From sequence record OK040907: a DNA stretch of 64,000 bases; one strand, written 5' to 3'. This document shows, piece after piece, positions 1 to 62,652 of the stretch. A model generated the notes under the pieces. It did no database searches. It had not been told where the DNA came from and worked only from the letters and a program-made list of their open reading frames with translations. Position numbers and translations under genes: made by a program. The number at the start of each line of letters is the position of its first letter. Position 1 is the stretch's first letter. This DNA comes from Enterobacteria phage Ac3.

Positions 1-1981
<1,981 letters not shown>

Positions 1982-2009
1982 TATTAAAGCATATTAAAGA
2001 GGATTAAAA

Positions 2010-3989
2010 ATGACTTTATTATCTCCGGGCATTGAGCTCAAAGAAACTACGGTTCAAAGCACCGTGGTTAATAACTCTACTGGTACAGCAGCTTTGGCCG
2101 GTAAATTCCAGTGGGGTCCTGCTTTTCAGATTAAACAGGTTACAAATGAAGTAGATTTAGTTAATACTTTTGGTCAACCAACCGCTGAAACTGCTGACTA
2201 TTTTATGTCTGCGATGAATTTCTTGCAGTACGGAAATGACTTACGAGTAGTTCGTGCTGTTGATAGAGATACCGCTAAAAACTCATCTCCGATTGCTGGT
2301 AATATTGAATACACAATTTCTACCCCAGGTAGTAACTATGCAGTTGGAGATAAAATCACGGTCAAATATGTTTCAGATGATATTGAAACTGAAGGTAAAA
2401 TTACCGAAGTAGACGCAGATGGAAAAATTAAGAAAATTAATATTCCTACTGCAAAAATTATTGCTAAAGCTAAAGAAGTTGGCGAATACCCAACATTAGG
2501 TTCTAACTGGACTGCAGAAATTTCTTCATCTTCTTCCGGTTTAGCTGCAGTAATAACTCTTGGAAAAATTATTACTGATTCCGGTATTTTATTAGCTGAA
2601 ATCGAGAGCGCTGAAACTGCTATGACAGCAGTTAATTTTCAGGAAAATCTTGAAAAATATGGAATTCCAGGAGTAGTAGCTCTCTATCCAGGCGAATTAG
2701 GCGATAAAATTGAAATTGAAATCGTATCTAAAGCTGACTATGCGAAAGGCGCTTCTGCATTACTGCCAATTTATCCAGGTGGTGGTACTCGTGCATCTAC
2801 TGCCAAGGCAGTATTTGGATATGGGCCGCAGACTGACTCACAGTACGCTATTATAGTTCGTCGAAATGATGCTATTGTTCAAAGCGTTGTTCTTTCAACT
2901 AAGCGTGGTGAAAAAGATATTTACGATAGTAACATCTATATCGATGACTTTTTCGCAAAAGGCGGCTCAGAATATATTTTTGCAACTGCACAAAACTGGC
3001 CAGAAGGCTTCTCTGGAATTTTAACTCTGTCTGGTGGATTATCATCAAATGCTGAAGTAACAGCAGGAGATTTGATGGAAGCTTGGGACTTCTTTGCTGA
3101 CCGTGAATCCGTTGATGTTCAACTGTTTATTGCGGGTTCTTGTGCCGGTGAATCTTTGGAAACAGCATCTACTGTCCAAAAACACGTCGTTTCAATTGGT
3201 GATGCTCGCCAGGATTGCTTAGTATTGTGCTCACCACCGCGTGAAACTGTAGTTGGAATTCCTGTAACCCGTGCTGTTGATAACTTAGTCAATTGGAGAA
3301 CTGCCGCAGGTTCATATACTGATAATAACTTTAATATTAGTTCAACCTACGCAGCAATTGATGGTAACTACAAATATCAGTATGACAAATATAATGATGT
3401 GAATCGTTGGGTTCCATTAGCAGCTGATATTGCTGGTTTATGCGCAAGAACTGATAACGTATCTCAGACTTGGATGTCACCAGCTGGTTATAATCGTGGC
3501 CAGATTCTTAACGTTATTAAACTTGCTATTGAAACTCGCCAGGCCCAACGTGACCGCTTATATCAAGAAGCTATCAACCCAGTAACTGGTACAGGTGGTG
3601 ATGGTTATGTATTGTATGGTGATAAAACAGCTACTTCTGTTCCTTCTCCATTTGATCGTATTAACGTTCGTCGTCTGTTTAATATGTTGAAAACGAATAT
3701 CGGACGTAGTTCAAAATATCGTTTGTTCGAATTAAACAACGCGTTTACTCGTTCTTCATTCCGTACAGAAACTGCTCAGTACTTGCAAGGAATTAAAGCT
3801 CTTGGCGGAATTTATGAATATCGTGTAGTTTGCGATACAACAAATAACACTCCGTCAGTAATTGATAGAAATGAGTTTGTTGCAACATTCTACATCCAAC
3901 CGGCGCGCAGTATAAATTATATCCAGCTTAACTTCGTTGCGACTGCTACTGGTGCAGATTTCGATGAGTTAACTGGTCTTGCTGGTTAA
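2010..3989 (+). CDS. 18: Contractile tail sheath protein
   Basis: 659 aa, same length as T4 gp18; strong RBS aagagga. Confidence 0.95.
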   Translation: MTLLSPGIELKETTVQSTVVNNSTGTAALAGKFQWGPAFQIKQVTNEVDLVNTFGQPTAETADYFMSAMNFLQYGNDLRVVRAVDRDTAKNSSPIAGNIEYTISTPGSNYAVGDKITVKYVSDDIETEGKITEVDADGKIKKINIPTAKIIAKAKEVGEYPTLGSNWTAEISSSSSGLAAVITLGKIITDSGILLAEIESAETAMTAVNFQENLEKYGIPGVVALYPGELGDKIEIEIVSKADYAKGASALLPIYPGGGTRASTAKAVFGYGPQTDSQYAIIVRRNDAIVQSVVLSTKRGEKDIYDSNIYIDDFFAKGGSEYIFATAQNWPEGFSGILTLSGGLSSNAEVTAGDLMEAWDFFADRESVDVQLFIAGSCAGESLETASTVQKHVVSIGDARQDCLVLCSPPRETVVGIPVTRAVDNLVNWRTAAGSYTDNNFNISSTYAAIDGNYKYQYDKYNDVNRWVPLAADIAGLCARTDNVSQTWMSPAGYNRGQILNVIKLAIETRQAQRDRLYQEAINPVTGTGGDGYVLYGDKTATSVPSPFDRINVRRLFNMLKTNIGRSSKYRLFELNNAFTRSSFRTETAQYLQGIKALGGIYEYRVVCDTTNNTPSVIDRNEFVATFYIQPARSINYIQLNFVATATGADFDELTGLAG

Positions 3990-4024
3990 TACGGTGCATT
4001 CTAAAGGCCTGTTTCGACAGGCCA

Positions 4025-4032
4025 TATAAATA
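4025..4032 (+). promoter_or_regulatory. Late promoter TATAAATA (first of two upstream of gene 19)
   Basis: Exact TATAAATA following a hairpin ggcctgtttcgacaggcc. Confidence 0.5.
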
Positions 4033-4083
4033 CACTATATCCTTAATTCTTTAATTCTATATGCCCTAGGTTAAACATAGGGA

Positions 4084-4091
4084 TATAAATA
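4084..4091 (+). promoter_or_regulatory. Late promoter TATAAATA upstream of gene 19
   Basis: Exact TATAAATA 15 nt upstream of gene 19 ATG. Confidence 0.6.
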
Positions 4092-4105
4092 CTACAGAGG
4101 CTAAT

Positions 4106-4597
4106 ATGTTTGTAGATGATGTAACACGAGCGTTTGAATCTGGTGATTTTGCGCGACCTAACTTATTCCAAGTAGAGATTTCTTATCTTGGCCAAAATTT
4201 TACGTTCCAATGTAAAGCTACTGCTTTACCAGCTGGTATTGTAGAAAAAATTCCAGTCGGATTTATGAACCGTAAAATTAATGTAGCAGGAGACCGTACA
4301 TTCGATGATTGGACTGTTACAGTGATGAATGATGAAGCTCATGATGCTCGTCAGAAGTTTGTTGATTGGCAAAGCATTGCTGCTGGTCAAGGAAACGAAA
4401 TTACTGGTGGAAAACCTGCAGAGTATAAAAAGAGCGCTATTGTTCGTCAATATGCTCGTGATGCTAAAACAGTAACAAAAGAAATTGAAATTAAAGGTCT
4501 ATGGCCTACTAACGTGGGTGAACTTCAATTAGATTGGGATTCAAACAATGAAATCCAAACATTTGAAGTAACTCTTGCTCTCGATTATTGGGAATAA
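4106..4597 (+). CDS. 19: Tail tube protein
   Basis: 163 aa, length and order as T4 gp19. Confidence 0.95.
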   Translation: MFVDDVTRAFESGDFARPNLFQVEISYLGQNFTFQCKATALPAGIVEKIPVGFMNRKINVAGDRTFDDWTVTVMNDEAHDARQKFVDWQSIAAGQGNEITGGKPAEYKKSAIVRQYARDAKTVTKEIEIKGLWPTNVGELQLDWDSNNEIQTFEVTLALDYWE

Positions 4598-4629
4598 AAT
4601 GAATGGGGAGAAATCCCCATCCTGCTTAA

Positions 4630-6254
<1,625 letters not shown>

Positions 6255-6255
<1 letters not shown>

Positions 6256-6491
6256 TGGAAGGTTTAATTGAAGCTATTAAATCAAACGACCTCGTAGCCG
6301 CTCGTAAATTATTTGCTGAAGCCATGGCTGCAAGAACGACTGATTTAATCAAAGAAGAAAAAATCACTATCGCTCGTAATTTCTTAATCGAGGGTGAAGA
6401 ACCTGATGACGAGGATGACGACGAAGATAGCGATGATGATAAAGACGACAAAAAAGACAAAGACTCTGATGAAGACGAGGATGATGAATAA
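6255..6491 (+). CDS. 67: Prohead core protein with acidic C-terminus
   Basis: 78 aa, D/E-rich tail, position between 20 and 68. Confidence 0.85.
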
Positions 6492-6916
6492 TGATTCTAA
6501 TCCCTGAAACTCATGAATTAGTTCTCGAGAATGTCGAAGCACTTATTCCTGAAGCACAGGGTCGCTTTGACGAGTTGTCTTCTGCTTTAAATAAAGACGA
6601 TATAAATAAAATTATCGAGAATATGCTTGATGATGAAACTGATTTAGCGGTTGCATTAGCTTCTATTAATGAAAATATGCCGTTAAATGAATTTATCGTT
6701 AAACATGTTTCTGCCCGTGGTGAAATTACTCGCACTAAAGATCGCAAAACCCGCGAACGTAATGCATTTCAAACTACCGGGTTGTCTAAAGCAAAACGTA
6801 GACAAATTGCTCGTAAAGCTACCAAAACGAAGATTGCCAATCCAGCAGGTCAATCTCGTGCTCAGCGTAAGCGTAAAAAAGCTCTTAAACGCCGTAAAGC
6901 ATTAGGATTAAGCTAA
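6491..6916 (+). CDS. 68: Prohead core protein
   Basis: 141 aa, basic C-terminus, position as T4 gene 68. Confidence 0.85.
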
Positions 6917-7554
6917 TGAATGAACCCCAATTGCTAATTGAAACTTGGGGTCAACCTGGCGAAATTATTGATGGTGTGCCAATGCTTGAATCCCATGATG
7001 GGAAAGACTTAGGTTTAAAACCTGGTTTATACATCGAAGGAATATTCATGCAAGCAGAAGTCGTCAATAGAAATAAACGTCTTTATCCAAAACGTATATT
7101 AGAAAAAGCGGTAAAAGACTATATTAATGAGCAAGTTTTAACTAAACAAGCTCTCGGAGAATTAAATCATCCTCCACGCGCTAATGTTGACCCGATGCAA
7201 GCCGCTATCATTATAGAAGATATGTGGTGGAAAGGAAATGACGTATACGGACGAGCTCGTGTTATTGAAGGTGACCATGGTCCTGGAGATAAATTAGCAG
7301 CTAATATTCGTGCCGGATGGATTCCAGGAGTTTCTTCTCGTGGATTAGGTTCATTGACTGACACAAATAAAGGTTATCGTATCGTAAACGAAGGATTCAA
7401 ATTAACTGTAGGTGTTGATGCAGTATGGGGTCCAAGTGCTCCAGATGCATGGGTAACTCCTAAGGAAATTACAGAATCACAGACGGCGGAAGCCGATACA
7501 AGTGCCGATGACGCCTATATGGCTCTCGCAGAGGCCATGAAAAAAGCGTTATAA
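6916..7554 (+). CDS. 21: Prohead core protease
   Basis: 212 aa, order and length as T4 gp21. Confidence 0.93.
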   Translation: MNEPQLLIETWGQPGEIIDGVPMLESHDGKDLGLKPGLYIEGIFMQAEVVNRNKRLYPKRILEKAVKDYINEQVLTKQALGELNHPPRANVDPMQAAIIIEDMWWKGNDVYGRARVIEGDHGPGDKLAANIRAGWIPGVSSRGLGSLTDTNKGYRIVNEGFKLTVGVDAVWGPSAPDAWVTPKEITESQTAEADTSADDAYMALAEAMKKAL

Positions 7555-7557
7555 ATA
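7550..7557 (+). promoter_or_regulatory. Late promoter TATAAATA upstream of gene 22
   Basis: Exact TATAAATA overlapping gene 21 stop, 28 nt upstream of gene 22 ATG. Confidence 0.6.
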
Positions 7558-7584
7558 TTATTATCTAAACAACAGGACTACAAA

Positions 7585-8394
7585 ATGCTTAAAGAACAAC
7601 TGATTGCCGAAGCGCAGAAAATTGATGCTTCCGTTGCTCTTGATAGTATTTTCGAATCAGTTAATATTTCTCCGGAAGCAAAAGAAACTTTCGGCACTGT
7701 ATTCGAAGCTACCGTCAAGCAGCACGCCGTTAAATTAGCTGAATCTCATATCGCTAAAATTGCTGAAAAAGCAGAAGAAGAAGTAGAAAAAAATAAAGAA
7801 GAAGCAGAAGAAAAAGCTGAGAAGAAAATCGCTGAGCAAGCTTCTAAATTCCTTGACCATCTTGCAAAAGAATGGCTCACTGAAAATAAATTAGCAGTAG
7901 ATAAAGGTATCAAAGCCGAACTGTTTGAATCCATGCTTGGTGGATTGAAAGAGCTCTTCGTTGAACACAACGTTGTTGTTCCAGAAGAATCAGTTGATGT
8001 TGTAGCTGAAATGGAAGAAGAACTGCAAGAACATAAAGAAGAATCAGCTCGTCTGTTCGAAGAACTCAATAAGCGTGACGCATATATCAATTATGTGCAG
8101 CGTGAAGTGGCATTGAGCGAAAGTACTAAAGATCTGACTGAGTCTCAAAAAGAAAAAGTCTCTGCTCTGGTCGAAGGTATTGATTATTCAGATGCATTCT
8201 CAAGCAAATTGAGTGCCATCGTAGAAATGGTGAAGAAATCTAATAAAGATGAAAGCACTATTACTGAGAGTATAAATACTCCTGATACTGAAGCAGCCGG
8301 ACTGAATTTCGTCACTGAAGCTGTAGAAGATAAATCTGCACAAGGTGCAGAAGATATTGTAAGTGTATATGCGAAAGTCGCATCTCGTTTCTAA
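7585..8394 (+). CDS. 22: Prohead core scaffold protein
   Basis: 269 aa, coiled-coil E/K-rich, order as T4. Confidence 0.9.
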   Translation: MLKEQLIAEAQKIDASVALDSIFESVNISPEAKETFGTVFEATVKQHAVKLAESHIAKIAEKAEEEVEKNKEEAEEKAEKKIAEQASKFLDHLAKEWLTENKLAVDKGIKAELFESMLGGLKELFVEHNVVVPEESVDVVAEMEEELQEHKEESARLFEELNKRDAYINYVQREVALSESTKDLTESQKEKVSALVEGIDYSDAFSSKLSAIVEMVKKSNKDESTITESINTPDTEAAGLNFVTEAVEDKSAQGAEDIVSVYAKVASRF

Positions 8395-8412
8395 TTTTAA
8401 AGGTTAACACAA

Positions 8413-9978
8413 ATGACTATCAAAACTAAAGCTGAACTTTTGAACAAATGGAAGCCATTACTGGAAGGTGAAGGTTTACCGGAAATTGCTAATAGCAAAC
8501 AAGCGATTATCGCTAAAATCTTTGAAAACCAGGAAAAAGATTTCCAGACAGCTCCGGAATATAAAGACGAAAAAATTGCTCAGGCATTCGGTTCTTTCTT
8601 AACAGAAGCTGAAATCGGTGGTGACCACGGTTATAATGCTACTAACATTGCTGCAGGTCAGACTTCTGGCGCGGTAACTCAGATTGGCCCAGCTGTTATG
8701 GGTATGGTACGTCGTGCTATTCCTAACCTGATTGCCTTCGATATTTGTGGTGTTCAGCCGATGAACAGCCCGACTGGCCAGGTATTCGCACTGCGCGCAG
8801 TATACGGTAAAGACCCAATCGCTTCCGATGCTAAAGAAGCATTCCATCCAATGTATGGTCCAGATGCAATGTTCTCTGGTCAGGGTGCTGCTAAGAAATT
8901 CACAGCTCTGGCTGCTAGCACACAAACCACAGTAGGTGATATCTATACTCACTTCTTCCAGGACACTGGTACTGTGTATCTGCAAGCTTCTGCTCAAGTA
9001 ACAATTAGTGCAAGCGCAACTGACGCAGCTAAATTAGATGCTGAAATTAAGAAACAAATGGAAGCTGGTGTACTGGTAGAAATCGCTGAAGGTATGGCTA
9101 CTTCTATCGCTGAACTCCAGGAAGGTTTCAATGGTTCTACCGATAACCCATGGAATGAAATGGGCTTCCGTATCGATAAGCAAGTTATCGAAGCTAAATC
9201 TCGTCAGCTGAAAGCTGCTTACTCTATCGAATTAGCACAGGACCTCCGCGCTGTTCACGGTATGGATGCTGATGCTGAACTGTCTGGCATTCTGGCTACA
9301 GAAATTATGCTGGAAATCAACCGCGAAGTTGTTGATTGGATTAACTACTCAGCTCAGGTTGGTAAATCTGGTATGACCCTGACTCCGGGTTCTAAAGCTG
9401 GTGTATTTGACTTCCAGGACCCAATCGATATTCGTGGTGCTCGCTGGGCAGGTGAATCCTTTAAAGCTCTGTTGTTCCAGATTGACAAAGAAGCAGTTGA
9501 AATTGCTCGTCAGACTGGTCGCGGCGAAGGTAACTTCATTATCGCTTCCCGTAACGTAGTTAACGTTCTGGCTTCAGTTGATACCGGCATTTCTTATGCT
9601 GCACAGGGTCTGGCTACTGGCTTTAACACTGATACTACCAAGTCAGTATTTGCTGGTGTTCTGGGTGGTAAATACCGTGTATATATCGACCAGTATGCTA
9701 AACAGGATTATTTCACTGTAGGTTATAAAGGTCCGAACGAAATGGATGCTGGTATTTACTACGCTCCATATGTAGCTCTGACTCCACTGCGTGGTTCTGA
9801 TCCGAAGAACTTCCAACCAGTAATGGGATTCAAAACTCGTTACGGTATCGGTATCAACCCATTTGCAGAATCCGCTGCTCAGGCTCCGGCTTCTCGCATT
9901 CAGAGTGGTATGCCTTCTATCCTGAACAGCCTTGGTAAGAACGCTTACTTCCGCCGTGTATATGTTAAAGGTATCTAA
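8413..9978 (+). CDS. 23: Major capsid protein
   Basis: 521 aa; contains the g23 marker primer regions (gatatttgtggtgttcagccgatga); biased codon usage typical of a highly expressed gene. Confidence 0.97.
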   Translation: MTIKTKAELLNKWKPLLEGEGLPEIANSKQAIIAKIFENQEKDFQTAPEYKDEKIAQAFGSFLTEAEIGGDHGYNATNIAAGQTSGAVTQIGPAVMGMVRRAIPNLIAFDICGVQPMNSPTGQVFALRAVYGKDPIASDAKEAFHPMYGPDAMFSGQGAAKKFTALAASTQTTVGDIYTHFFQDTGTVYLQASAQVTISASATDAAKLDAEIKKQMEAGVLVEIAEGMATSIAELQEGFNGSTDNPWNEMGFRIDKQVIEAKSRQLKAAYSIELAQDLRAVHGMDADAELSGILATEIMLEINREVVDWINYSAQVGKSGMTLTPGSKAGVFDFQDPIDIRGARWAGESFKALLFQIDKEAVEIARQTGRGEGNFIIASRNVVNVLASVDTGISYAAQGLATGFNTDTTKSVFAGVLGGKYRVYIDQYAKQDYFTVGYKGPNEMDAGIYYAPYVALTPLRGSDPKNFQPVMGFKTRYGIGINPFAESAAQAPASRIQSGMPSILNSLGKNAYFRRVYVKGI

Positions 9979-9993
9979 TCTTTGACGATTTAA

Positions 9994-10009
9994 GGGACCT
10001 TCGGGTCCC
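9994..10009 (+). terminator. Hairpin gggaccttcgggtccc after gene 23
   Basis: Perfect 6-bp GC stem with tetraloop, followed by T-rich run. Confidence 0.6.
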
Positions 10010-10026
10010 TTTAGTTGTTTTTATGG

Positions 10027-10034
10027 TATAAATA
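10027..10034 (+). promoter_or_regulatory. Late promoter TATAAATA upstream of gene 24
   Basis: Exact TATAAATA 27 nt upstream of ATG. Confidence 0.6.
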
Positions 10035-10061
10035 AATCATATAAACCAAAAGGAAAGCGCA

Positions 10062-11345
10062 ATGGCTAAAATCAACGAACTTCTGCGCGAATCAACCACA
10101 ACGAATAGCAACTCAATCGGTCGCCCAAATCTCGTTGCTTTGACTCGCGCTACCACTAAATTAATATATTCTGACATTGTAGCAACGCAAAGAACTAATC
10201 AACCTGTTGCTGCTTTTTATGGTATCAAATACCTTAACCCAGACAACGAATTTACATTTAAAACTGGTGCTACTTATGCTGGCGAAGCTGGATATGTAGA
10301 CCGAGAACAAATCACAGAATTAACAGAAGAGTCTAAATTAACTCTCAATAAAGGCGATTTATTCAAATATAATAATATCGTTTATAAAGTATTAGAAGAT
10401 ACACCATTTGCTGATATTGAAGAAAGTGATTTAGAATTAGCTCTTCAGATTGCAATTGTTCTTTTAAAGGTTCGTCTATTTTCTGACGCGGCGTCAACAA
10501 GCAAATTTGAAAGCTCTGATAGTGAAATTGCGGATGCTAGATTCCAGATTAATAAATGGCAAACCGCAGTTAAATCTCGTAAACTTAAAACTGGTATCAC
10601 AGTTGAATTAGCACAAGATTTAGAAGCAAATGGATTCGATGCTCCTAATTTCTTGGAAGATTTGCTTGCAACTGAAATGGCAGATGAAATCAATAAAGAT
10701 ATTCTGCAGTCTTTGATTACAGTATCAAAACGTTATAAAGTTACAGGAATTACTGATACTGGATTCATTGATTTGAGTTATGCATCTGCACCTGAAGCTG
10801 GTCGTTCATTATACCGAATGGTATGTGAAATGGTTTCGCATATCCAAAAAGAATCAACTTATACAGCAACGTTCTGTGTTGCTTCAGCTCGTGCCGCTGC
10901 GATTCTTGCTGCATCAGGTTGGTTAAAACATAAACCAGAAGATGATAAGTATCTTTCACAAAATGCCTACGGGTTCTTAGCTAATGGTTTACCGCTTTAT
11001 TGCGATACTAACAGCCCATTAGATTATGTAATCGTTGGCGTAGTAGAAAATATCGGTGAAAAAGAAATTGTTGGATCAATTTTCTATGCTCCGTATACAG
11101 AAGGTCTCGACTTAGATGACCCTGAACATGTAGGTGCATTTAAAGTTGTTGTTGATCCAGAAAGCTTGCAACCGTCTATCGGTTTATTAGTTAGATATGC
11201 TTTATCTGCAAATCCTTATACTGTAGCAAAAGATGAAAAAGAAGCAAGAGTAATTGACGGTGGAGACATGGATAAAATGGCGGGTCGTTCAGATTTGTCT
11301 GTTTTATTAGGTGTTAAATTACCAAAAATTATTATCGATGAATAA
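10062..11345 (+). CDS. 24: Capsid vertex protein (gp23 paralog)
   Basis: 427 aa, order and length as T4 gp24. Confidence 0.93.
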   Translation: MAKINELLRESTTTNSNSIGRPNLVALTRATTKLIYSDIVATQRTNQPVAAFYGIKYLNPDNEFTFKTGATYAGEAGYVDREQITELTEESKLTLNKGDLFKYNNIVYKVLEDTPFADIEESDLELALQIAIVLLKVRLFSDAASTSKFESSDSEIADARFQINKWQTAVKSRKLKTGITVELAQDLEANGFDAPNFLEDLLATEMADEINKDILQSLITVSKRYKVTGITDTGFIDLSYASAPEAGRSLYRMVCEMVSHIQKESTYTATFCVASARAAAILAASGWLKHKPEDDKYLSQNAYGFLANGLPLYCDTNSPLDYVIVGVVENIGEKEIVGSIFYAPYTEGLDLDDPEHVGAFKVVVDPESLQPSIGLLVRYALSANPYTVAKDEKEARVIDGGDMDKMAGRSDLSVLLGVKLPKIIIDE

Positions 11346-11351
11346 AACAAA

Positions 11352-11367
11352 GGGACCGAAAGGTCCC
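11352..11367. terminator. Bidirectional hairpin gggaccgaaaggtccc between convergent genes 24 and rnlB
   Basis: Perfect inverted repeat flanked by A and T runs. Confidence 0.6.
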
Positions 11368-11374
11368 TTTTTAT

Positions 11375-12379
11375 TTAGCTCACCAACTCAATCCAAGCTG
11401 GACGAAGTACATCTTGCACCATTTTAACTAATTCCTTTTTAATCAAAGAAGGATTATCTGCTTGAGTTAGAGTAATACCTTCACGAGAAGTTTCTTCCAA
11501 AATATCTTGGACAGTTAGCCCCATCACCTTTCCAAAATCCTTTGGACCAATTTCGCCAATTTTAGAAATAACGTTATTTACTCGGTTCAGTGTAACGTAA
11601 CAAGCTAAAATTCCCACCAATTTGTTATCAGCTTCTGACAATTCAACTTTAGCTTTAATAGGCTTATCAGACTTTTTCTTTTCACTAAATTTAGAATTCT
11701 TGCATTTGATGGCTACACGATTGCGATTAGGCAGCCAAGAAGGATAACAAGGTTTCAATACATATCCTTCAGCGGTAAATACTTCGCCTTTGGCTTCGGC
11801 ATTCCAAACGCATTTATTTGCATCAACTAATCCAGCATGGTCTACTGTAAAATTATAATCTTGGACGACAGAATCTAAATCATTTGGCAATTTAATAAGC
11901 TCTTCAAATTTACCGCGGCCTAAAAGTGGAGCGATTTTAAACCCAAATGAATTACAAAATGATTCCATCATATAATCATCGACATAAGTCACATCGCCAC
12001 TTTCTGTAGTGACAATAATGTCAAATACATAAAAATCTTTATCGCCATAATCAACATTCTTCTGAATGCCAGGTCCAGCGAATTCGCCAAAAACTTGATA
12101 AGATACAACCGCTGAAATTTCCATAATATCTTGTACTGCTTTAATGGAATCAGCGTAATTCTTTAGAATAATTTCATACCCAAAGAAATCTTCAGCAGGA
12201 AGAATCGGTCCAGTACGTTTAGCGCAAGTTACTTTATCACGCTCAATAATCAATGAGAAATTTGTGCCGTGAATCTTTTCACGAGCTACCCATTCGCCGC
12301 CAGTCAATCCCAAGCTATAAAGTTTTTCAATAAATTTAGAGTTGTAATGATTTTCAAGACTGCTATACTTTTTAAACAT
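11375..12379 (-). CDS. rnlB: RNA ligase 2
   Basis: 334 aa; nucleotidyltransferase motif KIHGTN; position after gene 24 as T4 rnlB. Confidence 0.9.
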
Positions 12380-12391
12380 AATTAATCCTTA

Positions 12392-12670
12392 AAATGTAAT
12401 TTCTAACCAATCACCATCACGCTGATCACTATTGACTTTAAAATTAAATCCTTCTTTTCTCAGCCAATCACCAATTTCTTCAGTAATCAATTTATCACGA
12501 GCAGTACAATAATAACTAAAATATGTTTTACCTTGTTCAGCTGCTTTATTAGCAAGTTCTGAAAAATCTTTAATAAAACACTCTAGCTTAAACTGTTTAC
12601 TTTTTAATGCTTTTTCACGTAATTGATTAGCAAAAGATTCATTTTCATAAAGATTACACAGTGCCGTTTT
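12392..12670 (-). pseudogene. 93-codon open frame with protein-like translation but no ATG/GTG/TTG start; possible N-terminally truncated 24.2-like gene
   Basis: Manual translation ends ...RDGDWLEITF* 12 nt before rnlB start; frame opens exactly where the GC-rich block ends. Confidence 0.35.
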
Positions 12671-12869
12671 TCACCTTTTTGTTGATGTGACGTTTGCGGT
12701 AAACCACTTTTTCGCGGGTTTCGAACTTGTTTTTAGCGGTCATGGCACGTGCCCACAGAACGGCAACTTCTTTGGCCTGCAGGTTCAGTTCACGAGCAAT
12801 TTCGATGAAGCTTTTACCGGATTCGTGCAGGGTGAACACTACAACCTCGGTGCGCATAATCAATCTCAT
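12654..12869 (-). CDS. Small protein with helix-turn-helix-like segment; GC3-rich codon usage
   Basis: 71 aa ORF (67 aa from second ATG at 12857); codons ctg/cgt/acc/gaa dominate, unlike neighbours. Confidence 0.5.
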   Translation of the reverse strand: MRLIMRTEVVVFTLHESGKSFIEIARELNLQAKEVAVLWARAMTAKNKFETREKVVYRKRHINKKVKNGTV

Positions 12870-12937
12870 GTTATCGAGTTGGTGCCATTATATACATCAT
12901 TTTCTGATTGTGTTTTGTGTGCTTTCAAAATGAAAAA

Positions 12938-12951
12938 GGGGCCGAAGCCCC
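12938..12951 (-). terminator. Hairpin ggggccgaagcccc downstream of hoc
   Basis: Perfect GC stem with tetraloop immediately after hoc stop. Confidence 0.55.
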
Positions 12952-12957
12952 TTTCGA

Positions 12958-14088
12958 TTATGGATAAGTATAGATGATACCAGTTTCTAAAGCAGTTTTA
13001 TGGATGATGTATCCATTACGTGATTCTTGAACATCAACTTCTGGATAATCTTTCATCATCTTCTGAAGCGTATAACGATGCAAGTAGTACTTACTATCTG
13101 GATCTTCAGTTTTCCAATCTTTACCTTCTTCAGTCATTTTTTGGATTTCATCCATAACCCACCAACCGCACCAGATGTAAGCTGAAGTACGATGTGGAAG
13201 AGGATGAACATAAGGTAATTCACCTTCCGGTTCTGGAGCAACTTTATCAGTTACCTGAACTTGACCCGTCGTTTTAACTGTTTTACTATCATAATCAGTT
13301 GCAGTAACAACTACAGTAACTTCAATAGTTTGACTTCCAATAGATGAGGTATCAACTGTATATACATTAGTTGACCCTTCTACAGGAGAAGAATCTTTCT
13401 TCCATGAATACTCAATTTGCGCTTCTTCTGGAGCATCAGTGACATTAGCGGTAAATGTAGCTGAAGCATCTTGCTGAACGTTAATAGAAGGAGGAGTCAA
13501 TGTAACCTGTGGATTCATTGTCTTCTTATTAACTGTTAATGATACTTCATTAGAAGTAACTTCCTTTTCATTGTAATTTTCTGCTGTTACTTGGGCTACG
13601 CATTTAATTCTTTTTACTCCACTTGTAGTTGGAGTATAGCTAAATGTAGAGTTAGTTTCTCCACCAACTTGAGAATCATCTACATACCATTTATATGTAG
13701 CAGACGCTCCATCAGGTTGAGAAGCTAAGGCAGCAGTAAATTGAACTGGGGTTCCAATTACTCCAGCAGCGGGACTATTGGGAGTTACTGCCAATGTAGT
13801 TGTCTGAGTTTTGTTTTTGACTGTGATAGTTGTAGTAGCTTCTGCTGTTTCAGCTTCAGATTCTGGAACTGTATTTGTTGCAACAACTTTAATAGTCTTT
13901 TGACCAGCAGGACCTTTTAATACATAATCAAAAGTTGCTTCAGACCCATCTTGTGGAGCATTATCTACACTCCAAGCATAAGTAATAGTTCCACCTCCAG
14001 TTTCACCACTGGGTGCAGCAGTAAACTGCTTGGTTTCATCAATAACCCCTGTCGGTGTTTTAGGAGTTATATCAACTGTAAAAGCCAT
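12958..14088 (-). CDS. hoc: Highly immunogenic outer capsid protein (Ig-like domains)
   Basis: 376 aa as T4 Hoc; repeated Ig-like segments; position. Confidence 0.9.
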   Translation of the reverse strand: MAFTVDITPKTPTGVIDETKQFTAAPSGETGGGTITYAWSVDNAPQDGSEATFDYVLKGPAGQKTIKVVATNTVPESEAETAEATTTITVKNKTQTTTLAVTPNSPAAGVIGTPVQFTAALASQPDGASATYKWYVDDSQVGGETNSTFSYTPTTSGVKRIKCVAQVTAENYNEKEVTSNEVSLTVNKKTMNPQVTLTPPSINVQQDASATFTANVTDAPEEAQIEYSWKKDSSPVEGSTNVYTVDTSSIGSQTIEVTVVVTATDYDSKTVKTTGQVQVTDKVAPEPEGELPYVHPLPHRTSAYIWCGWWVMDEIQKMTEEGKDWKTEDPDSKYYLHRYTLQKMMKDYPEVDVQESRNGYIIHKTALETGIIYTYP

Positions 14089-14097
14089 AAGTTATCC

Positions 14098-14778
14098 TTA
14101 TTTTAATGTTACGAAAGAAGAATTGCGTGTTTCACGAATTAAAACTGATCCGTCGCGATTAATGTAATAAATTAAGCTAAACAAAGTTTGGTGTGCTGAC
14201 GCGTGTTCAAAACTAGTTGGATGAGATTTCCAATCAGGAGTTTCAGCGATCCATTGATAAATCCACCAAGGAACCGTACAGAATCCTGGATTTTTCCCCA
14301 ATAATTGAAGATTCGGGCTAAAGTTTTCCGGAAGAGTAAATACAGACGGCTTTTCAGATTCAATAATCTTATCTACAGCTTGTTCAAACTTTTCTTCAAC
14401 AAAAGGAGTGTCTTCAATCAAAACATCAGTATTTTCAGGAATTTTATCCGTTTCTACCACTTCAATTTTAATATCAGATTTAACTGGAGAATCAATCAGA
14501 AGTGCTGCTTCTGGATTAACTTCTTCATCGTCATATTTTAATCCCTCTGCAGCATCAGCAGCATCAATTAAGTCTTTAATAGATAACCCATCAGTCTCTG
14601 GCATAGGTTCACTAGCGAGCTTCTGGAGGGCTTCTTCAATATCAACAACGATATTATCAAAAGATTTATTCTTTTTGACCTTTATACCAAATTGCTCAGC
14701 ATATTCAGCTAATTTAGCTTTAGCTTCTTTATTATCATCAAGAGCCTTTAACTCTGCAATATAATCTTTATCTATCAT
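14098..14778 (-). CDS. inh: Inhibitor of prohead protease
   Basis: 226 aa as T4 Inh; position downstream of hoc. Confidence 0.8.
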   Translation of the reverse strand: MIDKDYIAELKALDDNKEAKAKLAEYAEQFGIKVKKNKSFDNIVVDIEEALQKLASEPMPETDGLSIKDLIDAADAAEGLKYDDEEVNPEAALLIDSPVKSDIKIEVVETDKIPENTDVLIEDTPFVEEKFEQAVDKIIESEKPSVFTLPENFSPNLQLLGKNPGFCTVPWWIYQWIAETPDWKSHPTSFEHASAHQTLFSLIYYINRDGSVLIRETRNSSFVTLK

Positions 14779-14791
14779 AATATTTCCTCAG

Positions 14792-14799
14792 TATAAATA
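14792..14799 (+). promoter_or_regulatory. Late promoter TATAAATA upstream of uvsW
   Basis: Exact TATAAATA 29 nt upstream of uvsW ATG. Confidence 0.6.
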
Positions 14800-14828
14800 T
14801 AGATATATTTATTACATGGTATTTAGAC

Positions 14829-16340
14829 ATGACTGACATTAAAGTACATTTTTATGATTTTAGTCACGTGAGAATTGATTGTGAAGAAAGTACATTTCAT
14901 GAACTCCGTGATTTCTTTAGCTTCGAAGCTGATGGGTATCGTTTTAATCCGAAATACAAATATGGCCACTGGGATGGACGAATCCGTCTTTTAGATTATA
15001 ATCGTCTTCTTCCATTCGGCTTAGTCGGGCAAATTAAAAAGTTCTGTGATAACTTTGGCTATAAAGCCTGGATTGACCCACAAATTAACGAAAAAGAAGA
15101 ATTATCAAGAAAAGATTTTGATGAATGGCTTTCTAAATTAGAAATCTATTCAGGAAATAAAAGAATTGAACCACACTGGTATCAAAAAGATGCAGTGTTC
15201 GAAGGATTAGTTAATCGTCGTAGAATTCTTAATCTTCCAACATCCGCTGGTAAATCTTTAATTCAGGCTCTGCTCGCTCGGTATTATTTGGAAAATTACG
15301 AAGGTAAAATTCTTATCATTGTTCCAACAACTGCTCTAACAACTCAGATGGCTGATGACTTCGTTGACTATCGTTTATTCAGTCATGCAATGATAAAGAA
15401 AATTGGTGGCGGAGCATCAAAAGATGATAAATATAAAAATGATGCACCAGTCGTTGTTGGTACATGGCAAACTGTAGTTAAACAACCAAAAGAATGGTTC
15501 TCACAGTTTGGAATGATGATGAATGATGAATGTCATCTTGCTACAGGAAAAAGTATTTCATCTATCATATCAGGTTTAAATAACTGCATGTTCAAATTTG
15601 GTCTATCTGGTTCATTACGTGATGGCAAAGCCAATATCATGCAGTATGTTGGAATGTTTGGTGAAATATTTAAGCCAGTAACGACTTCTAAGTTAATGGA
15701 AGATGGACAAGTAACTGAGCTAAAAATTAATAGTATTTTTCTTCGCTATCCCGATGAGTTCACTACTAAATTAAAGGGAAAAACTTATCAAGAAGAAATA
15801 AAAATTATTACGGGGCTTAGTAAAAGAAATAAATGGATCGCTAAATTAGCTATTAAGCTTGCGCAAAAAGATGAAAACGCTTTTGTCATGTTTAAACATG
15901 TATCACATGGTAAAGCTATTTTCGATTTAATTAAAAATGAATATGATAAAGTTTATTACGTATCAGGGGAAGTTGATACCGAAACCCGCAATATAATGAA
16001 AACCTTAGCTGAAAATGGTAAAGGAATAATTATAGTAGCTAGTTATGGTGTATTTTCTACTGGTATTTCAGTTAAAAATCTGCACCACGTTGTTTTAGCA
16101 CACGGTGTTAAATCAAAAATCATTGTATTACAAACAATCGGTCGTGTATTACGTAAGCATGGTTCTAAGACAATAGCAACAGTCTGGGACCTCATAGATG
16201 ATTGTGGTGTTAAGCCAAAATCTGCTAATACGAAAAAGAAATATGTTCATTTGAACTATCTTTTAAAACACGGCATTGATCGTATTCAGCGCTACGCAGA
16301 TGAAAAATTTAATTACGTAATGAAAACAGTTAATTTATAA
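14829..16340 (+). CDS. uvsW: UvsW SF2 DNA helicase
   Basis: 503 aa; Walker A PTSAGKS and DECH box; matches T4 UvsW. Confidence 0.95.
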   Translation: MTDIKVHFYDFSHVRIDCEESTFHELRDFFSFEADGYRFNPKYKYGHWDGRIRLLDYNRLLPFGLVGQIKKFCDNFGYKAWIDPQINEKEELSRKDFDEWLSKLEIYSGNKRIEPHWYQKDAVFEGLVNRRRILNLPTSAGKSLIQALLARYYLENYEGKILIIVPTTALTTQMADDFVDYRLFSHAMIKKIGGGASKDDKYKNDAPVVVGTWQTVVKQPKEWFSQFGMMMNDECHLATGKSISSIISGLNNCMFKFGLSGSLRDGKANIMQYVGMFGEIFKPVTTSKLMEDGQVTELKINSIFLRYPDEFTTKLKGKTYQEEIKIITGLSKRNKWIAKLAIKLAQKDENAFVMFKHVSHGKAIFDLIKNEYDKVYYVSGEVDTETRNIMKTLAENGKGIIIVASYGVFSTGISVKNLHHVVLAHGVKSKIIVLQTIGRVLRKHGSKTIATVWDLIDDCGVKPKSANTKKKYVHLNYLLKHGIDRIQRYADEKFNYVMKTVNL

Positions 16341-16352
16341 GGGCTTCGGCCC
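16341..16352 (+). terminator. Hairpin gggcttcggccc after uvsW
   Basis: GC stem with UUCG-type loop. Confidence 0.45.
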
Positions 16353-16353
16353 T

Positions 16354-16596
16354 TTGGAGAAAAAGATGTTACTAGAATTTAAACAATTTCTTTATGAAGC
16401 TTCTATTGATGAATTTATGGGTAAAATTGCCTCTTGCCAAACGATAGAAGGTTTAGAAGAACTTGAAGCTTATTATAAGAAAAGAGTTAAAGAAACTGAA
16501 TTAAAAGATACTGATGACATCTCAGTCAGAGATGCTTTGGCAGGAAAAAGAGCTGAATTAGAAGATTCAGACGATGAAGTAGAAGAAAGCTTTTAA
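16354..16596 (+). CDS. uvsW.1: UvsW.1 small acidic protein
   Basis: 80 aa ORF directly after uvsW, as in T4. Confidence 0.8.
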   Translation: MEKKMLLEFKQFLYEASIDEFMGKIASCQTIEGLEELEAYYKKRVKETELKDTDDISVRDALAGKRAELEDSDDEVEESF

Positions 16597-16651
16597 ATTA
16601 AAAAAGGCCCAACCAAAAAGGAAGGGCCAAAACTATAGACTAAAGGTCACA

Positions 16652-16819
16652 CTATAGCAAAAGTTGTGTTTCATTTAATTGTTCTTCCGAACTTTCTGAA
16701 ACTGGTAGTTCTTTAATGTAATTATAGCAAGGCCCAGGATGTACAGGACCTTTGTCTGTTTCAACAACCAATGCAGAATCGATTGGAGTTTTACAGACAA
16801 CACAAATCTTATCTGACAT
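16652..16819 (-). CDS. Small Cys-containing protein (uvsY.-2-like), 55 aa
   Basis: Manual translation MSDKICVVCKTPID...; below the ORF-track length cut-off; late promoter just upstream. Confidence 0.5.
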   Translation of the reverse strand: MSDKICVVCKTPIDSALVVETDKGPVHPGPCYNYIKELPVSESSEEQLNETQLLL

Positions 16820-16844
16820 GATTGTCTCCTCTGAATTATATATC

Positions 16845-16852
16845 TATTTATA
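16845..16852 (-). promoter_or_regulatory. Late promoter TATAAATA (minus strand) upstream of the 55-aa ORF
   Basis: Plus-strand tatttata, 25 nt upstream of the minus-strand ATG at 16819. Confidence 0.5.
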
Positions 16853-16942
16853 ACCCCATCTTAAAGCGCATTTCTTGTACACGCTTTAAACATGCTTCCA
16901 TTTCTGCTAAAAGTCTAAATACTTCTTTATAATTTGTCATAT

Positions 16943-17170
16943 TTACCCCATATCTCTCATATGCATATCAATGCCCATATCTTTAGAATAAAAATATTCA
17001 TCAAGATATCCGGCAAATTTTCCTTTAATATAAAGGACATCTTCACCACACGGGTGGTCGGCCAGGATACGAATATCCTGACGCTTAAGATTATGCTTTT
17101 TCATTAAGAATTGAATTTCCGTTTCAAATTCTTCTTCATAATTAAAAGCGTCATCAATGTTATATCTCAT
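16943..17170 (-). CDS. Hypothetical protein (uvsY.-1-like)
   Basis: 75 aa ORF translationally coupled to uvsY (ATGA-style overlap). Confidence 0.6.
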   Translation of the reverse strand: MRYNIDDAFNYEEEFETEIQFLMKKHNLKRQDIRILADHPCGEDVLYIKGKFAGYLDEYFYSKDMGIDMHMRDMG

Positions 17171-17583
17171 TATTTTCCAGCCTCAAATGCCCGCATGTCT
17201 TGAATATGCTTAATAGCAAATCCTCGTGATTTGATAGCATCAAGAGCTCCGCTACAGAAATCTAATAAAATTCCCCAATATTGTAATGAAGTATCAACCT
17301 TTAAAACATCCTTATCAGCTGATAGAACTGTTTTCATTTCTGATTTCTCGTAACGATCCATACTAAATTCATCACCATCTCCTCGTCCCGAGTAGTAGTC
17401 TAATTTAGCTTTAAGAGCAACTTTTTTCTGTGCTTCAATTCTAAGCATTTCCTTTTTAATACTTGAATGCTTATTAAGCCATTTACTATATAACATCACA
17501 TTATTAGCTGCTTCATACTGTAATTTAGTCGAATCTATAAACACATCTTTCTTCAATTCTTCTTGAAGATCTTCTAATCTCAT
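17170..17583 (-). CDS. uvsY: UvsY recombination mediator
   Basis: 137 aa, matches T4 UvsY. Confidence 0.9.
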   Translation of the reverse strand: MRLEDLQEELKKDVFIDSTKLQYEAANNVMLYSKWLNKHSSIKKEMLRIEAQKKVALKAKLDYYSGRGDGDEFSMDRYEKSEMKTVLSADKDVLKVDTSLQYWGILLDFCSGALDAIKSRGFAIKHIQDMRAFEAGK

Positions 17584-17649
17584 ATTGTTCTCTATTCAAT
17601 TGTTATTGGATGGACTTAGATTCATTATACCACGTTTATACGTGAAGCA

Positions 17650-18048
17650 TTATACTCTATTACTGGAAGCCAGTTGTAGTTTTATCTGCTCAATATCATC
17701 AGGGTTATCGATGACTGAAAAGCGTATTTCTACTATCAAAGTATAATCATCATAAACCGGTATTACATTAACTGCTAATTTATCAATACGTGGCTCATAG
17801 TTTCTTACTGCGCTTTCGATATTACGCTCAACCGTGTCAGCAGTAAGAGGAGTCATATTCTCAAAAAGTTGGTCAGATAAATCGCATCCAAATTCAGGGT
17901 CAAACGGTCTTGAACCTTTTCTTGTTGTAATAATTCCTAAAAGACTATTTTTAATTGACCTTAATCCAAGTGATCTTGAAACGTCTTTGTTCCAATCCAT
18001 TTTCATCTCTGGGTCAATATCAGAATAAAGCTTATTAATATTTGCCAT
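17650..18048 (-). CDS. 25: Baseplate wedge protein (lysozyme-fold)
   Basis: 132 aa as T4 gp25; position. Confidence 0.9.
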   Translation of the reverse strand: MANINKLYSDIDPEMKMDWNKDVSRSLGLRSIKNSLLGIITTRKGSRPFDPEFGCDLSDQLFENMTPLTADTVERNIESAVRNYEPRIDKLAVNVIPVYDDYTLIVEIRFSVIDNPDDIEQIKLQLASSNRV

Positions 18049-18674
18049 TACAATAGCTCAAAGAATTCTTTGAGTCCTCTTATTACATGAGCGTGGGTTT
18101 TTCCACACTCTGGACACTTAATTGGAACAGCCAAATAAACAGTAGGCTTTAAAAGCATATCTTTTATAGCTACAATATCTGACTCTGTGATGATAGAATA
18201 TAAATCTTCCAATTCTTTTTCATTTAAGTCTTCAACTGGAATGCTTTCACCGTTAGCATGAATCGTTTCTATACATGATACTATCATGTGGGCTATATTT
18301 TTATCATCAAAAATTTTAGGGTAATGGAATTTAATTTTAATGTCACCCAGTGTATACCAGAGGTCTTCTGGTGCATCTATTTGTGTATGTAATAGATTTA
18401 TATGGGTTGGTATTTCAGTTCCACAGGTGCACTTCCAGGAGTTTTCGTGATTAACTTCTCCAAGAGAATGCGCCCATAAATGAATCAGTAATAGTTCTGA
18501 TTCTTGGCGGTTTAAATCTTTTGCATTTGTACAGTCTTTGATTAGCTTTTTAACAATCTCTTCTACTGAACCATTCTTTTTAGCAGTAATAAGTTCTAGA
18601 TATTCTTTAAGAGTAAATGCGCGACAGTTGATTATTTTAGAACCAACTCTCACATCAAATTTGTATTCATACAT
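18048..18674 (-). CDS. 26: Baseplate hub protein
   Basis: 208 aa as T4 gp26; position. Confidence 0.85.
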   Translation of the reverse strand: MYEYKFDVRVGSKIINCRAFTLKEYLELITAKKNGSVEEIVKKLIKDCTNAKDLNRQESELLLIHLWAHSLGEVNHENSWKCTCGTEIPTHINLLHTQIDAPEDLWYTLGDIKIKFHYPKIFDDKNIAHMIVSCIETIHANGESIPVEDLNEKELEDLYSIITESDIVAIKDMLLKPTVYLAVPIKCPECGKTHAHVIRGLKEFFELL

Positions 18675-18700
18675 ATTTAGCTCCTTTATTTATCATATCT

Positions 18701-37800: not shown

Positions 37801-39190
<1,390 letters not shown>

Positions 39191-39194
<4 letters not shown>

Positions 39195-48944: not shown

Positions 48945-49184
48945 TTAAGCTTTCTTGGCAACTTTCCAGTCAGCTTTGAACTGATCGACGTCGCTGTGAT
49001 GGATCCAGAAGCCGGAGCTGGAACCGTCTTCATAGAGTGGGCAACCGTCACATTCATCTTCCCAACCCATATCACGCAGGAGATGTTCTGCCTTTTCGAT
49101 CAGCTCGGAATCTTTACCAATGATGTTGAAGTACCATTTGCCGCGTACTTCAGAGTCTTTAATGGACTGACGCTGCAGACGCAT
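48945..49184 (-). CDS. Small Cys-containing protein with GC3-rich codon usage
   Basis: 79 aa from MRLQRQ with gaggag RBS and own early promoter; the 109-aa track ORF starts upstream. Confidence 0.55.
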   Translation of the reverse strand: MRLQRQSIKDSEVRGKWYFNIIGKDSELIEKAEHLLRDMGWEDECDGCPLYEDGSSSGFWIHHSDVDQFKADWKVAKKA

Positions 49185-49937: not shown

Positions 49938-50168
49938 TTACTGTTCGATGAGACCCATGTAGAATTCCGCATCTTCGGAGTCCATACCGTCGCAGTATTC
50001 GTTAGCCATGAAGCGGGTCAGGTCCTCCAGTGGACCCTCAATAACAATGCTAAAGTTACAATAGTTCGGGTCATCATGGATGGAAGTAATAGACAGCTCC
50101 GGGTAACGGTTGCGGATAATTTCCTCGATGTATTCGAAATCAACGATGTCGATGTCTACTTTAGCCAT
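49938..50168 (-). CDS. Small acidic protein with GC3-rich codon usage
   Basis: 76 aa from MAKVDID with aggaaa RBS and own early promoter. Confidence 0.55.
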
Positions 50169-50314: not shown

Positions 50315-51223
50315 TTACAGGTCGTTCAGGAGGTCATCCAGGTCGGTATCGTCGGCGCTGGAAGAGGAGCCGCTAGAGGAAGACATGAAGTCATCTTCGG
50401 TTTTAGTGTTAAAATCGTCAACGTTAAAGGCGTCCAGGTCATCCGCTACCTTATCGGCTTTCTTAGCCGCAGTAGCCGCAGCACCGCCCATCACAGCAGT
50501 GCCCATAACCTGACCGAACTTGGTGTTGAGTTCCTCAAAAGATTTAAATTTATCTTTGGAGGTCATCTCAGACAGATCTACCATCTGCTCAAACAGTTCT
50601 TTTTGGAAAGATTCGTCATCGATGTTCGGGATAGCAGACTGGTTCAGAAATTTGCTCTCGTCGTAATTGGAGAAACCAGAAACCTGTTTAACCTTCAGAA
50701 CGAAGTTGGCACCCTCCCACGGGCAGGTGACGTCGACCGGGGTTTCACCCATCTCCACGTCCACCGCAATCATAGCGTTAATTTTATCCCAGATTTTCTT
50801 ACCAAAGCGGTATTTGAAAACCTTACCCTCGTTTTCTGGCGCAGCTGGATCCTTTACAACCAGGATGTTAGCCCAGTAAGAGGTTTTACGTTTCACCAGG
50901 CCGTATTCTTTATTGTCGGTATTATACAGATCGTTTTTGGAAATGTACTGACACACCGGGCAAGAGTCGTAGTCGCCGTGGGTGGAAGAACAGTTTTCGA
51001 TGTACCATTTGCCGTTTTTCTTAAAACCGTGGTTCACCAGGATAGCGAACGGAGCCTGTTCGTCATTTTTGCTCGGCAGGAAGCGGATCACCGCCTGACC
51101 GTTGCCCGCGTTGTCCAGTTTCAGTTTCCATTCGCCTTTGTCCTCAGAGCTGAAGCCACCTTTGTTGCCCGCCAGCTTGGCCATCTGCGCAGCCAGTTCT
51201 GCCGTGCTCTTACGCTTGAACAT
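50315..51223 (-). CDS. 32: Single-stranded DNA-binding protein
   Basis: 302 aa; zinc ligands H/C/C/C in HGF...ENC...DSCPVC; acidic C-terminus; operator directly upstream. Confidence 0.95.
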
Positions 51224-62300: not shown

Positions 62301-62621
62301 AAAAAGAACCTCGTTAAATTTGAAAATGCTTCTGAGAAGCTTTCTAAAATTAACGGTTACACTTATATGCAGAAACGTGGAACAGATGAAGAAGGTAATC
62401 AGAAATGGGAACCTAACGCAGGTTTGATAGCTCAAGAAGTTCAAGATATTTTACCAGAATTCGTTGAAGGTGACCCGGATGGTGAAGCTTTACTTCGTTT
62501 GAACTATAACGGTGTAATTGGTTTAAATACAGCTGCAATCAATGAGCATACTGCAGAAATTGCAGAACTTAAGTCAGAGATTGAAGAGCTTAAAAAATTA
62601 GTTAAATCATTGTTAAAATAA
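59310..62621 (+). CDS. 37: Long tail fibre distal subunit with C-terminal intramolecular chaperone-like domain; internal out-of-frame segment
   Basis: 1103 aa; conserved N-terminus [13 protein letters not shown]; C-terminal coiled coil; about 52 codons at 61245-61401 read in a shifted frame. Confidence 0.88.
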
Positions 62622-62626
62622 TAAGA

Positions 62627-62640
62627 GGGGCTTCGGCCCC
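62627..62640 (+). terminator. Hairpin ggggcttcggcccc after gene 37
   Basis: Perfect GC stem with UUCG loop. Confidence 0.5.
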
Positions 62641-62652
62641 TTGGAGGTTTAT

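Follow-up and report, generated by a model that had tools for sequence, protein, structure and literature searches.

In phages RB51, T4T and a51, hoc, a terminator, 24.3, 24.2 and rnlB follow one another in a common order. The same placement of 24.3 between hoc and 24.2/rnlB is found in two Mosigvirus annotations. In the RB51 annotation, 24.3 is a DUF2774 domain protein, and 24.2 is a hypothetical protein. Nine natural homologues were compared, namely those of RB51, T4T, a51, four IMG/VR contigs and two Mosigvirus phages. The third-position GC content (GC3) of 24.3 is 0.23-0.28 in these nine, and 24.2 starts in each of them with an ATG behind AAGGTG-N4/5 (at the equivalent position in Mosigvirus). 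The sequence AAAAAGGTGAA(A/G)AA followed by the ATG of 24.2 is conserved across Tequatrovirus and Mosigvirus. The Mosigvirus 24.3/24.2 overlap is only 4 nt long (ATGA), and 24.2 of these phages lacks the 9-residue N-terminal extension of Tequatrovirus.

Overlapping genes are a known hazard of genome refactoring and recoding. In T7.1 and decompressed phiX174, virus genomes were reportedly refactored or synonymously recoded with their overlaps purposely separated. Literature searches brought up no paper that deals with DUF2774 or a recoded RB51 and none of use for T4 24.2/24.3; those on Ac3 and RB51 revealed nothing about engineering.

The window considered here (the whole analysed stretch of DNA, 64,000 nt) corresponds to bases 96001-160000 of Enterobacteria phage RB51 (NC_012635.1). 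The gene order is of the T4 type, with gene 24, rnlB, two small minus-strand ORFs, hoc and inh, and the synteny from hoc through the terminator, 24.3 and 24.2 to rnlB is that of RB51, T4T and a51 (Table 1). Within this order, 24.3 differs sharply in composition from its surroundings. The most probable reading, with a probability of about 0.93, is that 24.3 is an artificial synonymous back-translation made with a weighted E. coli codon table, guided by the annotation and blind to the overlapping 24.2.

Table 1. Features of the 24.3 locus and the other recoded genes, in window coordinates
Feature	Position	Strand	Remarks
gene 24	10062-11345	+	ORF list and sequence
rnlB	11375-12379	-	ORF list and sequence
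24.2 homologue, start codon lost	12389..12667	-	92 aa in RB51 (108389-108667), phrog_2416
First canonical in-frame start remaining in the 24.2 frame, TTG	12488..12490	-	33-aa C-terminal fragment only
24.3/24.2 overlap, 14 nt	12654..12667	-	RB51 annotation and alignment
Former 24.2 start, now ACG	12665..12667	-	ATG in every natural homologue examined
24.2 Shine-Dalgarno AAGGTG, intact	12672..12677	-	4 nt upstream of the former start
24.3 CDS (67 aa, DUF2774)	12654..12857	-	recoded synonymously from codon 2 to the stop; RB51 counterpart 108654-108857; 53 nt changes, 0 aa changes, GC3 0.28→0.60
In-frame extension to the upstream ATG, unrecoded	12858..12869	-	identical to RB51; yields a 71-aa ORF
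Terminator-like hairpin between the end of hoc and 24.3	12934..12955	-	identical to RB51
hoc	12958-14088	-	ORF list and sequence
RB32ORF217c	38892..39194	-	80 nt changes, 0 aa changes, GC3 0.25→0.61
frd.1	48945..49184	-	54 nt changes, 0 aa changes, GC3 0.29→0.54
frd.3	49938..50168	-	51 nt changes, 0 aa changes, GC3 0.25→0.61
gene 32 (ssDNA-binding protein)	50315..51223	-	190 nt changes, 0 aa changes, GC3 0.29→0.62

Extent of the recoding in 24.3

The best megablast match of positions 9000-16000 was RB51 at 99.3% identity. When 12300-13000 was used as the query alone, the best phage record reached only 92.6%, so that nearly all of the differences fall within this 701-base stretch. Base-by-base and ungapped comparison demonstrated that window positions 1-18698 equal RB51 96001-114698 apart from 53 substitutions, all of them at 12655-12854. 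These substitutions affect 26% of the nucleotides of 24.3 and none of its 68 amino-acid positions, and 44 of them hit third codon positions. The first change is in codon 2 and the last in the stop codon (TGA to TAA). The flanks are unaltered, including the 12 nt to the alternative upstream ATG, the promoter/terminator region and everything downstream.

The ORF encodes 71 aa when read from the upstream ATG (12654-12869); with the annotated ATG at 12857 as the start, the product has 67 aa. The longer form, with its ATG four codons upstream, is the one annotated in phage a51. Recoding sets in just behind the start codon given in the RB51 and T4 annotations, which indicates that annotated CDS coordinates were used.

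The first-pass annotation had described a GC3-rich minus-strand ORF with E. coli-like codons at 12654-12869, and this description was confirmed. GC3 of 24.3 is 0.28 in RB51 and 0.60 in the window, as compared with 0.243±0.048 (maximum 0.36) in 76 unrecoded annotated genes, which gives z=7.4. The baseline consisted of the annotated window genes identical or near-identical to RB51; a ranking of all ATG-ORFs of at least 50 codons was dropped in favour of annotated genes because out-of-frame spurious ORFs also showed values of about 0.6. In 100-nt windows, GC content is 0.44-0.51 across 12650-12849 versus 0.25-0.33 just downstream. The changed fraction of synonymous sites (pS) is about 1.0 between the window 24.3 and RB51, whereas it is 0.16-0.21 between RB51 and T4T or a51. 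The CTGCAG (12777-12782) and AAGCTT (12808-12813) sites reported for the ORF are located as claimed. The 24.3 anomaly is a true feature of the sequence and lies well outside what chance would give.

The late-promoter-like motif TATAAATA was looked for in the window and RB51 versions of the 24.3 block and found in neither. A promoter or terminator gained or lost inside the block was ruled out, since only chance-level sigma-70-like matches were obtained there and the hoc terminator is unchanged.

Other recoded genes, codon usage and origin of the sequence

When the entire window was compared with RB51 with gaps allowed, nine clusters of differences emerged, five of which are CDS-shaped with a difference density of 0.21-0.27. 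Besides 24.3, these are RB32ORF217c, frd.1, frd.3 and gene 32. In the five genes, GC3 rises from 0.25-0.29 to 0.54-0.62 (z-scores of 6.3-7.9 against the 76 unrecoded genes for the four other than 24.3), and every TGA stop is converted into TAA. Identical recoding of four genes other than 24.3 points to an artificial, annotation-driven edit and not to an evolutionary event.

The pooled codon usage of the five genes is strongly biased: CTG makes up 0.80 of the Leu codons, and AAC (0.89), CAG (0.94), ACC (0.71) and TAC (0.80) predominate likewise. Glycine is encoded only by GGT/GGC and arginine only by CGT/CGC. Seventeen rare codons are never used (AGA, AGG, CGA, CGG, ATA, CTA, CTT, TTA, TTG, GGA, GGG, TCA, TCG, AGT, ACA, CCC and CCT). 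The pooled usage correlates with that of E. coli at r=0.74 and with the phage background at 0.21. The profile resembles that of highly expressed E. coli genes.

Of the 619 codons, 252 are unchanged versus 264.7 expected under draws independent of the native codon, where each new codon is drawn from the pooled distribution regardless of the original. This count is what weighted back-translation produces. In addition, 25 serine codons of the recoded genes have passed from the TCN to the AGY box or the reverse, which takes 2-3 simultaneous base changes per codon; several AGR→CGN and TTR→CTN switches are multi-base too. Common cloning sites (PstI, HindIII, BamHI, EcoRI, SalI, BsaI) occur inside the recoded blocks, so the design did not come from a cloning-aware tool.

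For 24.3, the proposed procedure would have back-translated gp24.3 one residue at a time, with codons chosen by a weighted E. coli table of the highly-expressed-gene type. The replacement would take in codon 2, the stop codon and everything between them, with the flanks left alone. The features of an artificial recode are found together at this locus: the protein is unchanged at saturated synonymous sites, the edits are bounded by the CDS, and the codon usage is that of an expression host. The edit was probably made by software or by gene synthesis and did not arise by evolution. A point against artificial recoding is that there is no obvious rationale for the choice of these five genes.

In RB32ORF217c, the recoding at 38892-38910 replaced TTAGGAATTAAATGATG by CTCGGTATTAAATAATG immediately ahead of the start of pseT, which overlaps this gene. 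The ATG of pseT is retained, and its likely Shine-Dalgarno sequence (AGGA) is lost, which is a second collateral effect of recoding.

A natural origin of the block was considered as well. In that case, 24.3 would have been swapped by mosaicism or horizontal transfer for a divergent phage allele or a copy adapted to host codons. T-even genomes are mosaic, and the window itself contains a natural-looking gp37/gp38 swap related to phage Ac3. However, a pS of about 1 with no amino-acid change does not fit such an exchange; the Mosigvirus 24.3 allele, of similar nucleotide divergence (~73-75% DNA identity, GC3 0.23), differs at many residues. The breakpoints lie exactly at codon 2 and at the stop codon, the same pattern is repeated in five unlinked genes, and the codon usage is foreign to the phage.

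Searches for a donor were also against this origin. The native RB51 segment shares at least 95% identity with 496 phage records. Positions 12300-13000 of the window are matched by 557 phage records, none of them above 92.6%. Exact 39- and 48-mers of the recoded DNA were absent from viral, genome and metagenome contig collections. On this basis a natural 24.3 allele was ruled out. Acquisition from the host or a plasmid was rejected too, as blastn of 12640-12880 gave no match in 5,426 complete E. coli genomes or 72,556 plasmids. No donor-like sequence was thus available in phages, plasmids, E. coli genomes or the three contig collections. Taken together, the lack of nonsynonymous changes, the codon-exact boundaries, the five genes affected, the foreign codons and the lack of a donor exclude natural recombination or host transfer for practical purposes, and its probability is negligible.

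Two possibilities had been offered in the first-pass annotation, an insertion or a synonymous replacement that clipped the start of the neighbouring gene. The former does not hold, given the unchanged length and gene order and the absence of anything similar in E. coli genomes or plasmids. The latter was borne out by the RB51 alignment, with 53 nucleotide and 0 amino-acid changes and with the ATG of 24.2 turned into ACG. In the proposed alignment to T-even references, RB51, T4T and a51 all keep the ATG, and the identical recoded sequence is present in none of them.

Codon-optimised sequences from expression constructs could also have been merged into the phage assembly during assembly or curation. 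The blocks are indeed in the style of expression constructs, with E. coli-preferred codons and TAA stops, and cover exactly the annotated CDSs. Still, the blocks join the phage sequence base-perfectly at the ATG and behind the stop codon, without any vector, tag or linker. Five separate constructs would need to have been merged free of error, and no such construct was found in the plasmid collection. Merging of this kind is considered highly improbable; in practice, it is a sub-case of an artificial sequence and inseparable from it by the window alone. Deliberate or algorithmic recoding of annotated CDSs is the only explanation that fits all of the evidence, and both an in silico and a physical edit are compatible with it.

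Other differences of the window from RB51 are of a different kind. Genes 37 and 38 (59351-63424), for the distal tail fibre and the adhesin, differ from RB51 non-synonymously and with indels, and they are 99.9% identical to the partial phage Ac3 record AF060870.1. In ungapped comparison, which is inflated by the indels, gp37 differs from that of RB51 at 260 of 1104 positions. The backbone is accordingly RB51-like and carries an Ac3-type host-range module, as would be seen in a natural mosaic or in the Ac3 genome itself. Relative to RB51, one base (C) is inserted at 18699, between genes 26 and 51 and immediately upstream of a motif that resembles the late promoter TATAAATA (CATAT-C-TTATAAATAG). 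This insertion was found in 0 of 501 matching phage records, the best identity being 99.5% over 201 nt. Two isolated substitutions, both non-synonymous, were found: RB51 G to window A at 28799, in the second alt gene, and RB51 G to window T at 49699, in frd.2. The private 1-bp insertion, the two SNPs and the Ac3-type gp37/38 set the backbone apart from the RB51 record itself.

Loss of the 24.2 start codon

In RB51, the end of 24.3 reads ...AAA AAG GTG AAA AAT GGA ACA GTA TGA, and 24.2 reads there ATG GAA CAG TAT GAT. In the window, the overlap is AAC GGC ACT GTG TAA, and the 24.2 frame reads ACG GCA CTG TGT AAT. Recoding of Asn65 (AAT→AAC) made the 24.2 start ATG (AAGGTG-AAAA-ATG) into ACG at 12667-12665, and the N-terminus MEQYD became TALCN. 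In total, 24.2 differs from RB51 by 5 nt and 5 aa, all within the 14-nt overlap with 24.3, and is identical from codon 6 on.

These changes would follow from the proposed back-translation. The procedure would have ignored 24.2, whose first 14 nt lie within the end of 24.3. As a result, recoding of Asn65-Gly-Thr-Val-stop (AAT GGA ACA GTA TGA → AAC GGC ACT GTG TAA) would have turned the 24.2 ATG into ACG and altered the next four residues. That 24.2 lost its start is a side effect of overwriting the overlap.

The start-less frame of 93 codons reported in the first-pass annotation is indeed open from 12670 down to 12392 (stop at 12391-12389), gives the quoted translation and contains no ATG or GTG. 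The TTG at 12490-12488, which is codon 61 of the 24.2 frame and opens a 33-aa ORF, had been overlooked. The start was said to have been lost by a change of ATG to CTG at 12661-12659. This is the wrong base, as the actual change is the ACG at 12667-12665, two codons upstream. The frame was also said to open exactly at the composition switch. It does open there, after the TGA at 12673-12671, located in the native Shine-Dalgarno region GGTGAAAA. The same TGA is present in RB51, and the coincidence is therefore the native arrangement.

It could be supposed that 24.2 still works in the window through a programmed ACG or CTG start, possibly coupled to 24.3 termination, or that the 33-aa product from the TTG is functional. 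The AAGGTG is intact 4 nt upstream of the ACG, and low-level initiation at non-AUG codons occurs in E. coli, where GFP initiated from ACG was seen by mass spectrometry (bioRxiv 10.1101/063800). The altered residues fall in the 9-residue N-terminal extension that the Mosigvirus homologues are without; any residual 24.2 product would accordingly be predicted to retain the conserved core.

On the other hand, the position behind the conserved AAGGTG is occupied by ACG in place of a canonical start, and only this ACG (12667) or the CTG (12661) is available near the intact Shine-Dalgarno sequence. A conserved non-canonical start of 24.2 was not found, as all nine natural homologues examined use ATG. 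In E. coli, initiation at codons outside the AUG/GUG/UUG set reaches about 0.01-3% of that at AUG; AUA, AUC, AUU and CUG give about 1-2%, and others including ACG give 0.1-1% or less (bioRxiv 10.1101/063800). For the TTG at 12490, an AGGAGG-like Shine-Dalgarno run was sought in the 20 nt upstream (ATTGTACTGCTCGTGATAAA), and none was found. The start change is, moreover, fully accounted for as a by-product of 24.3 recoding. A working 24.2 is consequently very unlikely. Its translation is probably at ~1% of the normal level or less, so that the gene would be effectively knocked out.

RNA folding at the 24.3/24.2 junction was no better than in shuffled controls (z=0.32 for the window and z=0.44 for RB51). 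Since both versions fold like the controls, an RNA structure explaining or compensating for the changed junction was ruled out.

Encoded proteins and comparison with known systems

The gp24.3 protein gives a full-length match to Pfam DUF2774 (PF11242; E=3e-31, 107.7 bits versus a cut-off of 29.2), in which residues 1-64 align to profile positions 1-63 of 63, and also matches phrog_1566 (E=6.8e-33). The family is small, with 31 representatives at E ≤ 1e-3 in an exhaustive HMMER search. It is characterized by an F..IA helix and a nearly invariant VYRKR motif, mostly within KVVYRKR.

A helix-turn-helix (HTH)-like regulator had been proposed in the first-pass annotation from a segment of the small protein, and this proposal is reasonable. 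The AlphaFold model built from the family alignment (pLDDT 87) has helices at 3-12, 17-24 and 28-47, and this three-helix arrangement resembles LuxR/GerE and sigma region 4. It superposes on RcsB, NarL, GerE, TraR and SigW domain 4 with an rmsd of 1.1-1.3 Å over 40-46 residues, the Foldseek E-values being weak (0.2 or higher). By contrast, the HTH profiles stay below threshold: GerE scores 18.3 bits versus a cut-off of 23.5, and HTH_38, Sigma70_r4_2, HTH_40 and HTH_35 likewise do not reach theirs. A search by sequence among solved structures gave nothing significant for gp24.3. An HTH fold of the ordinary T4 gp24.3 is thus plausible on the model and unproven. The likeness is unrelated to the composition anomaly.

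Distant relatives of gp24.3 include seven long proteins of 270-2393 aa. Most of them match the DUF2774-like unit 4-8 times, and the 2393-aa protein matches it twice. These repeated matches suggest that the HTH-like module also occurs as tandem arrays.

For gp24.2, a run on the RB51 protein gave a match to phrog_2416 (E=3.7e-41, residues 10-92). Its matches are limited to families of unknown function.

There is no new natural biology in the 24.3 anomaly: a known gene was recoded, and its neighbour lost the start as a side effect. A compositional anomaly that fits an annotated CDS exactly, with no amino-acid changes at saturated synonymous sites, is a signature of artificial recoding. It points away from horizontal transfer and from a new regulator, and its value is that of a caution and a diagnostic. 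The locus also illustrates a hazard of compact phage genomes, in which a 'silent' edit of 24.3 became a start-codon knockout of 24.2 through an overlap of 14 nt.

It is unlikely that the sequence comes from a physically existing, viable engineered phage of the RB51/Ac3 type. If such a phage exists, phenotypes ascribed to 24.3 recoding would be confounded by the loss of 24.2. Such a phage would amount to an unplanned experiment. Its viability would mean that the conserved 24.2 is either not needed or still expressed, from ACG, and that complete recoding into host-optimal codons is tolerated by five genes, the autoregulated gene 32 among them.

Among known systems, the closest is the 24.3-24.2 pair of T4 and RB51. 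The gp24.3 protein is 100% identical in the window, RB51, T4T and a51. In contrast to the natural pair, GC3 in the window is 0.60 versus 0.23-0.28, and 24.2 is without its ATG and altered at residues 1-5. A natural gp37/gp38 exchange in T-even phages likewise gives a sharply bounded divergent block in an otherwise identical backbone. Such natural blocks, however, carry amino-acid changes, indels and phage codon usage (GC3 0.27), none of which is found in the 24.3 block.

The window 24.3 has more in common with codon-optimised synthetic genes, in which the protein is kept, rare codons are gone, codons are drawn independently of the originals, TGA becomes TAA, serine codons change box and no edit falls outside the CDS. 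Unlike these genes, it is situated in the native phage locus, with no vector and no avoidance of restriction sites, and the overlapping gene was left unprotected. The refactoring of T7.1 and decompressed phiX174 is similar in that coding sequence was reportedly rewritten with the proteins kept. Unlike in those genomes, the 14-nt overlap in the window was overwritten, and the neighbouring gene lost its start.
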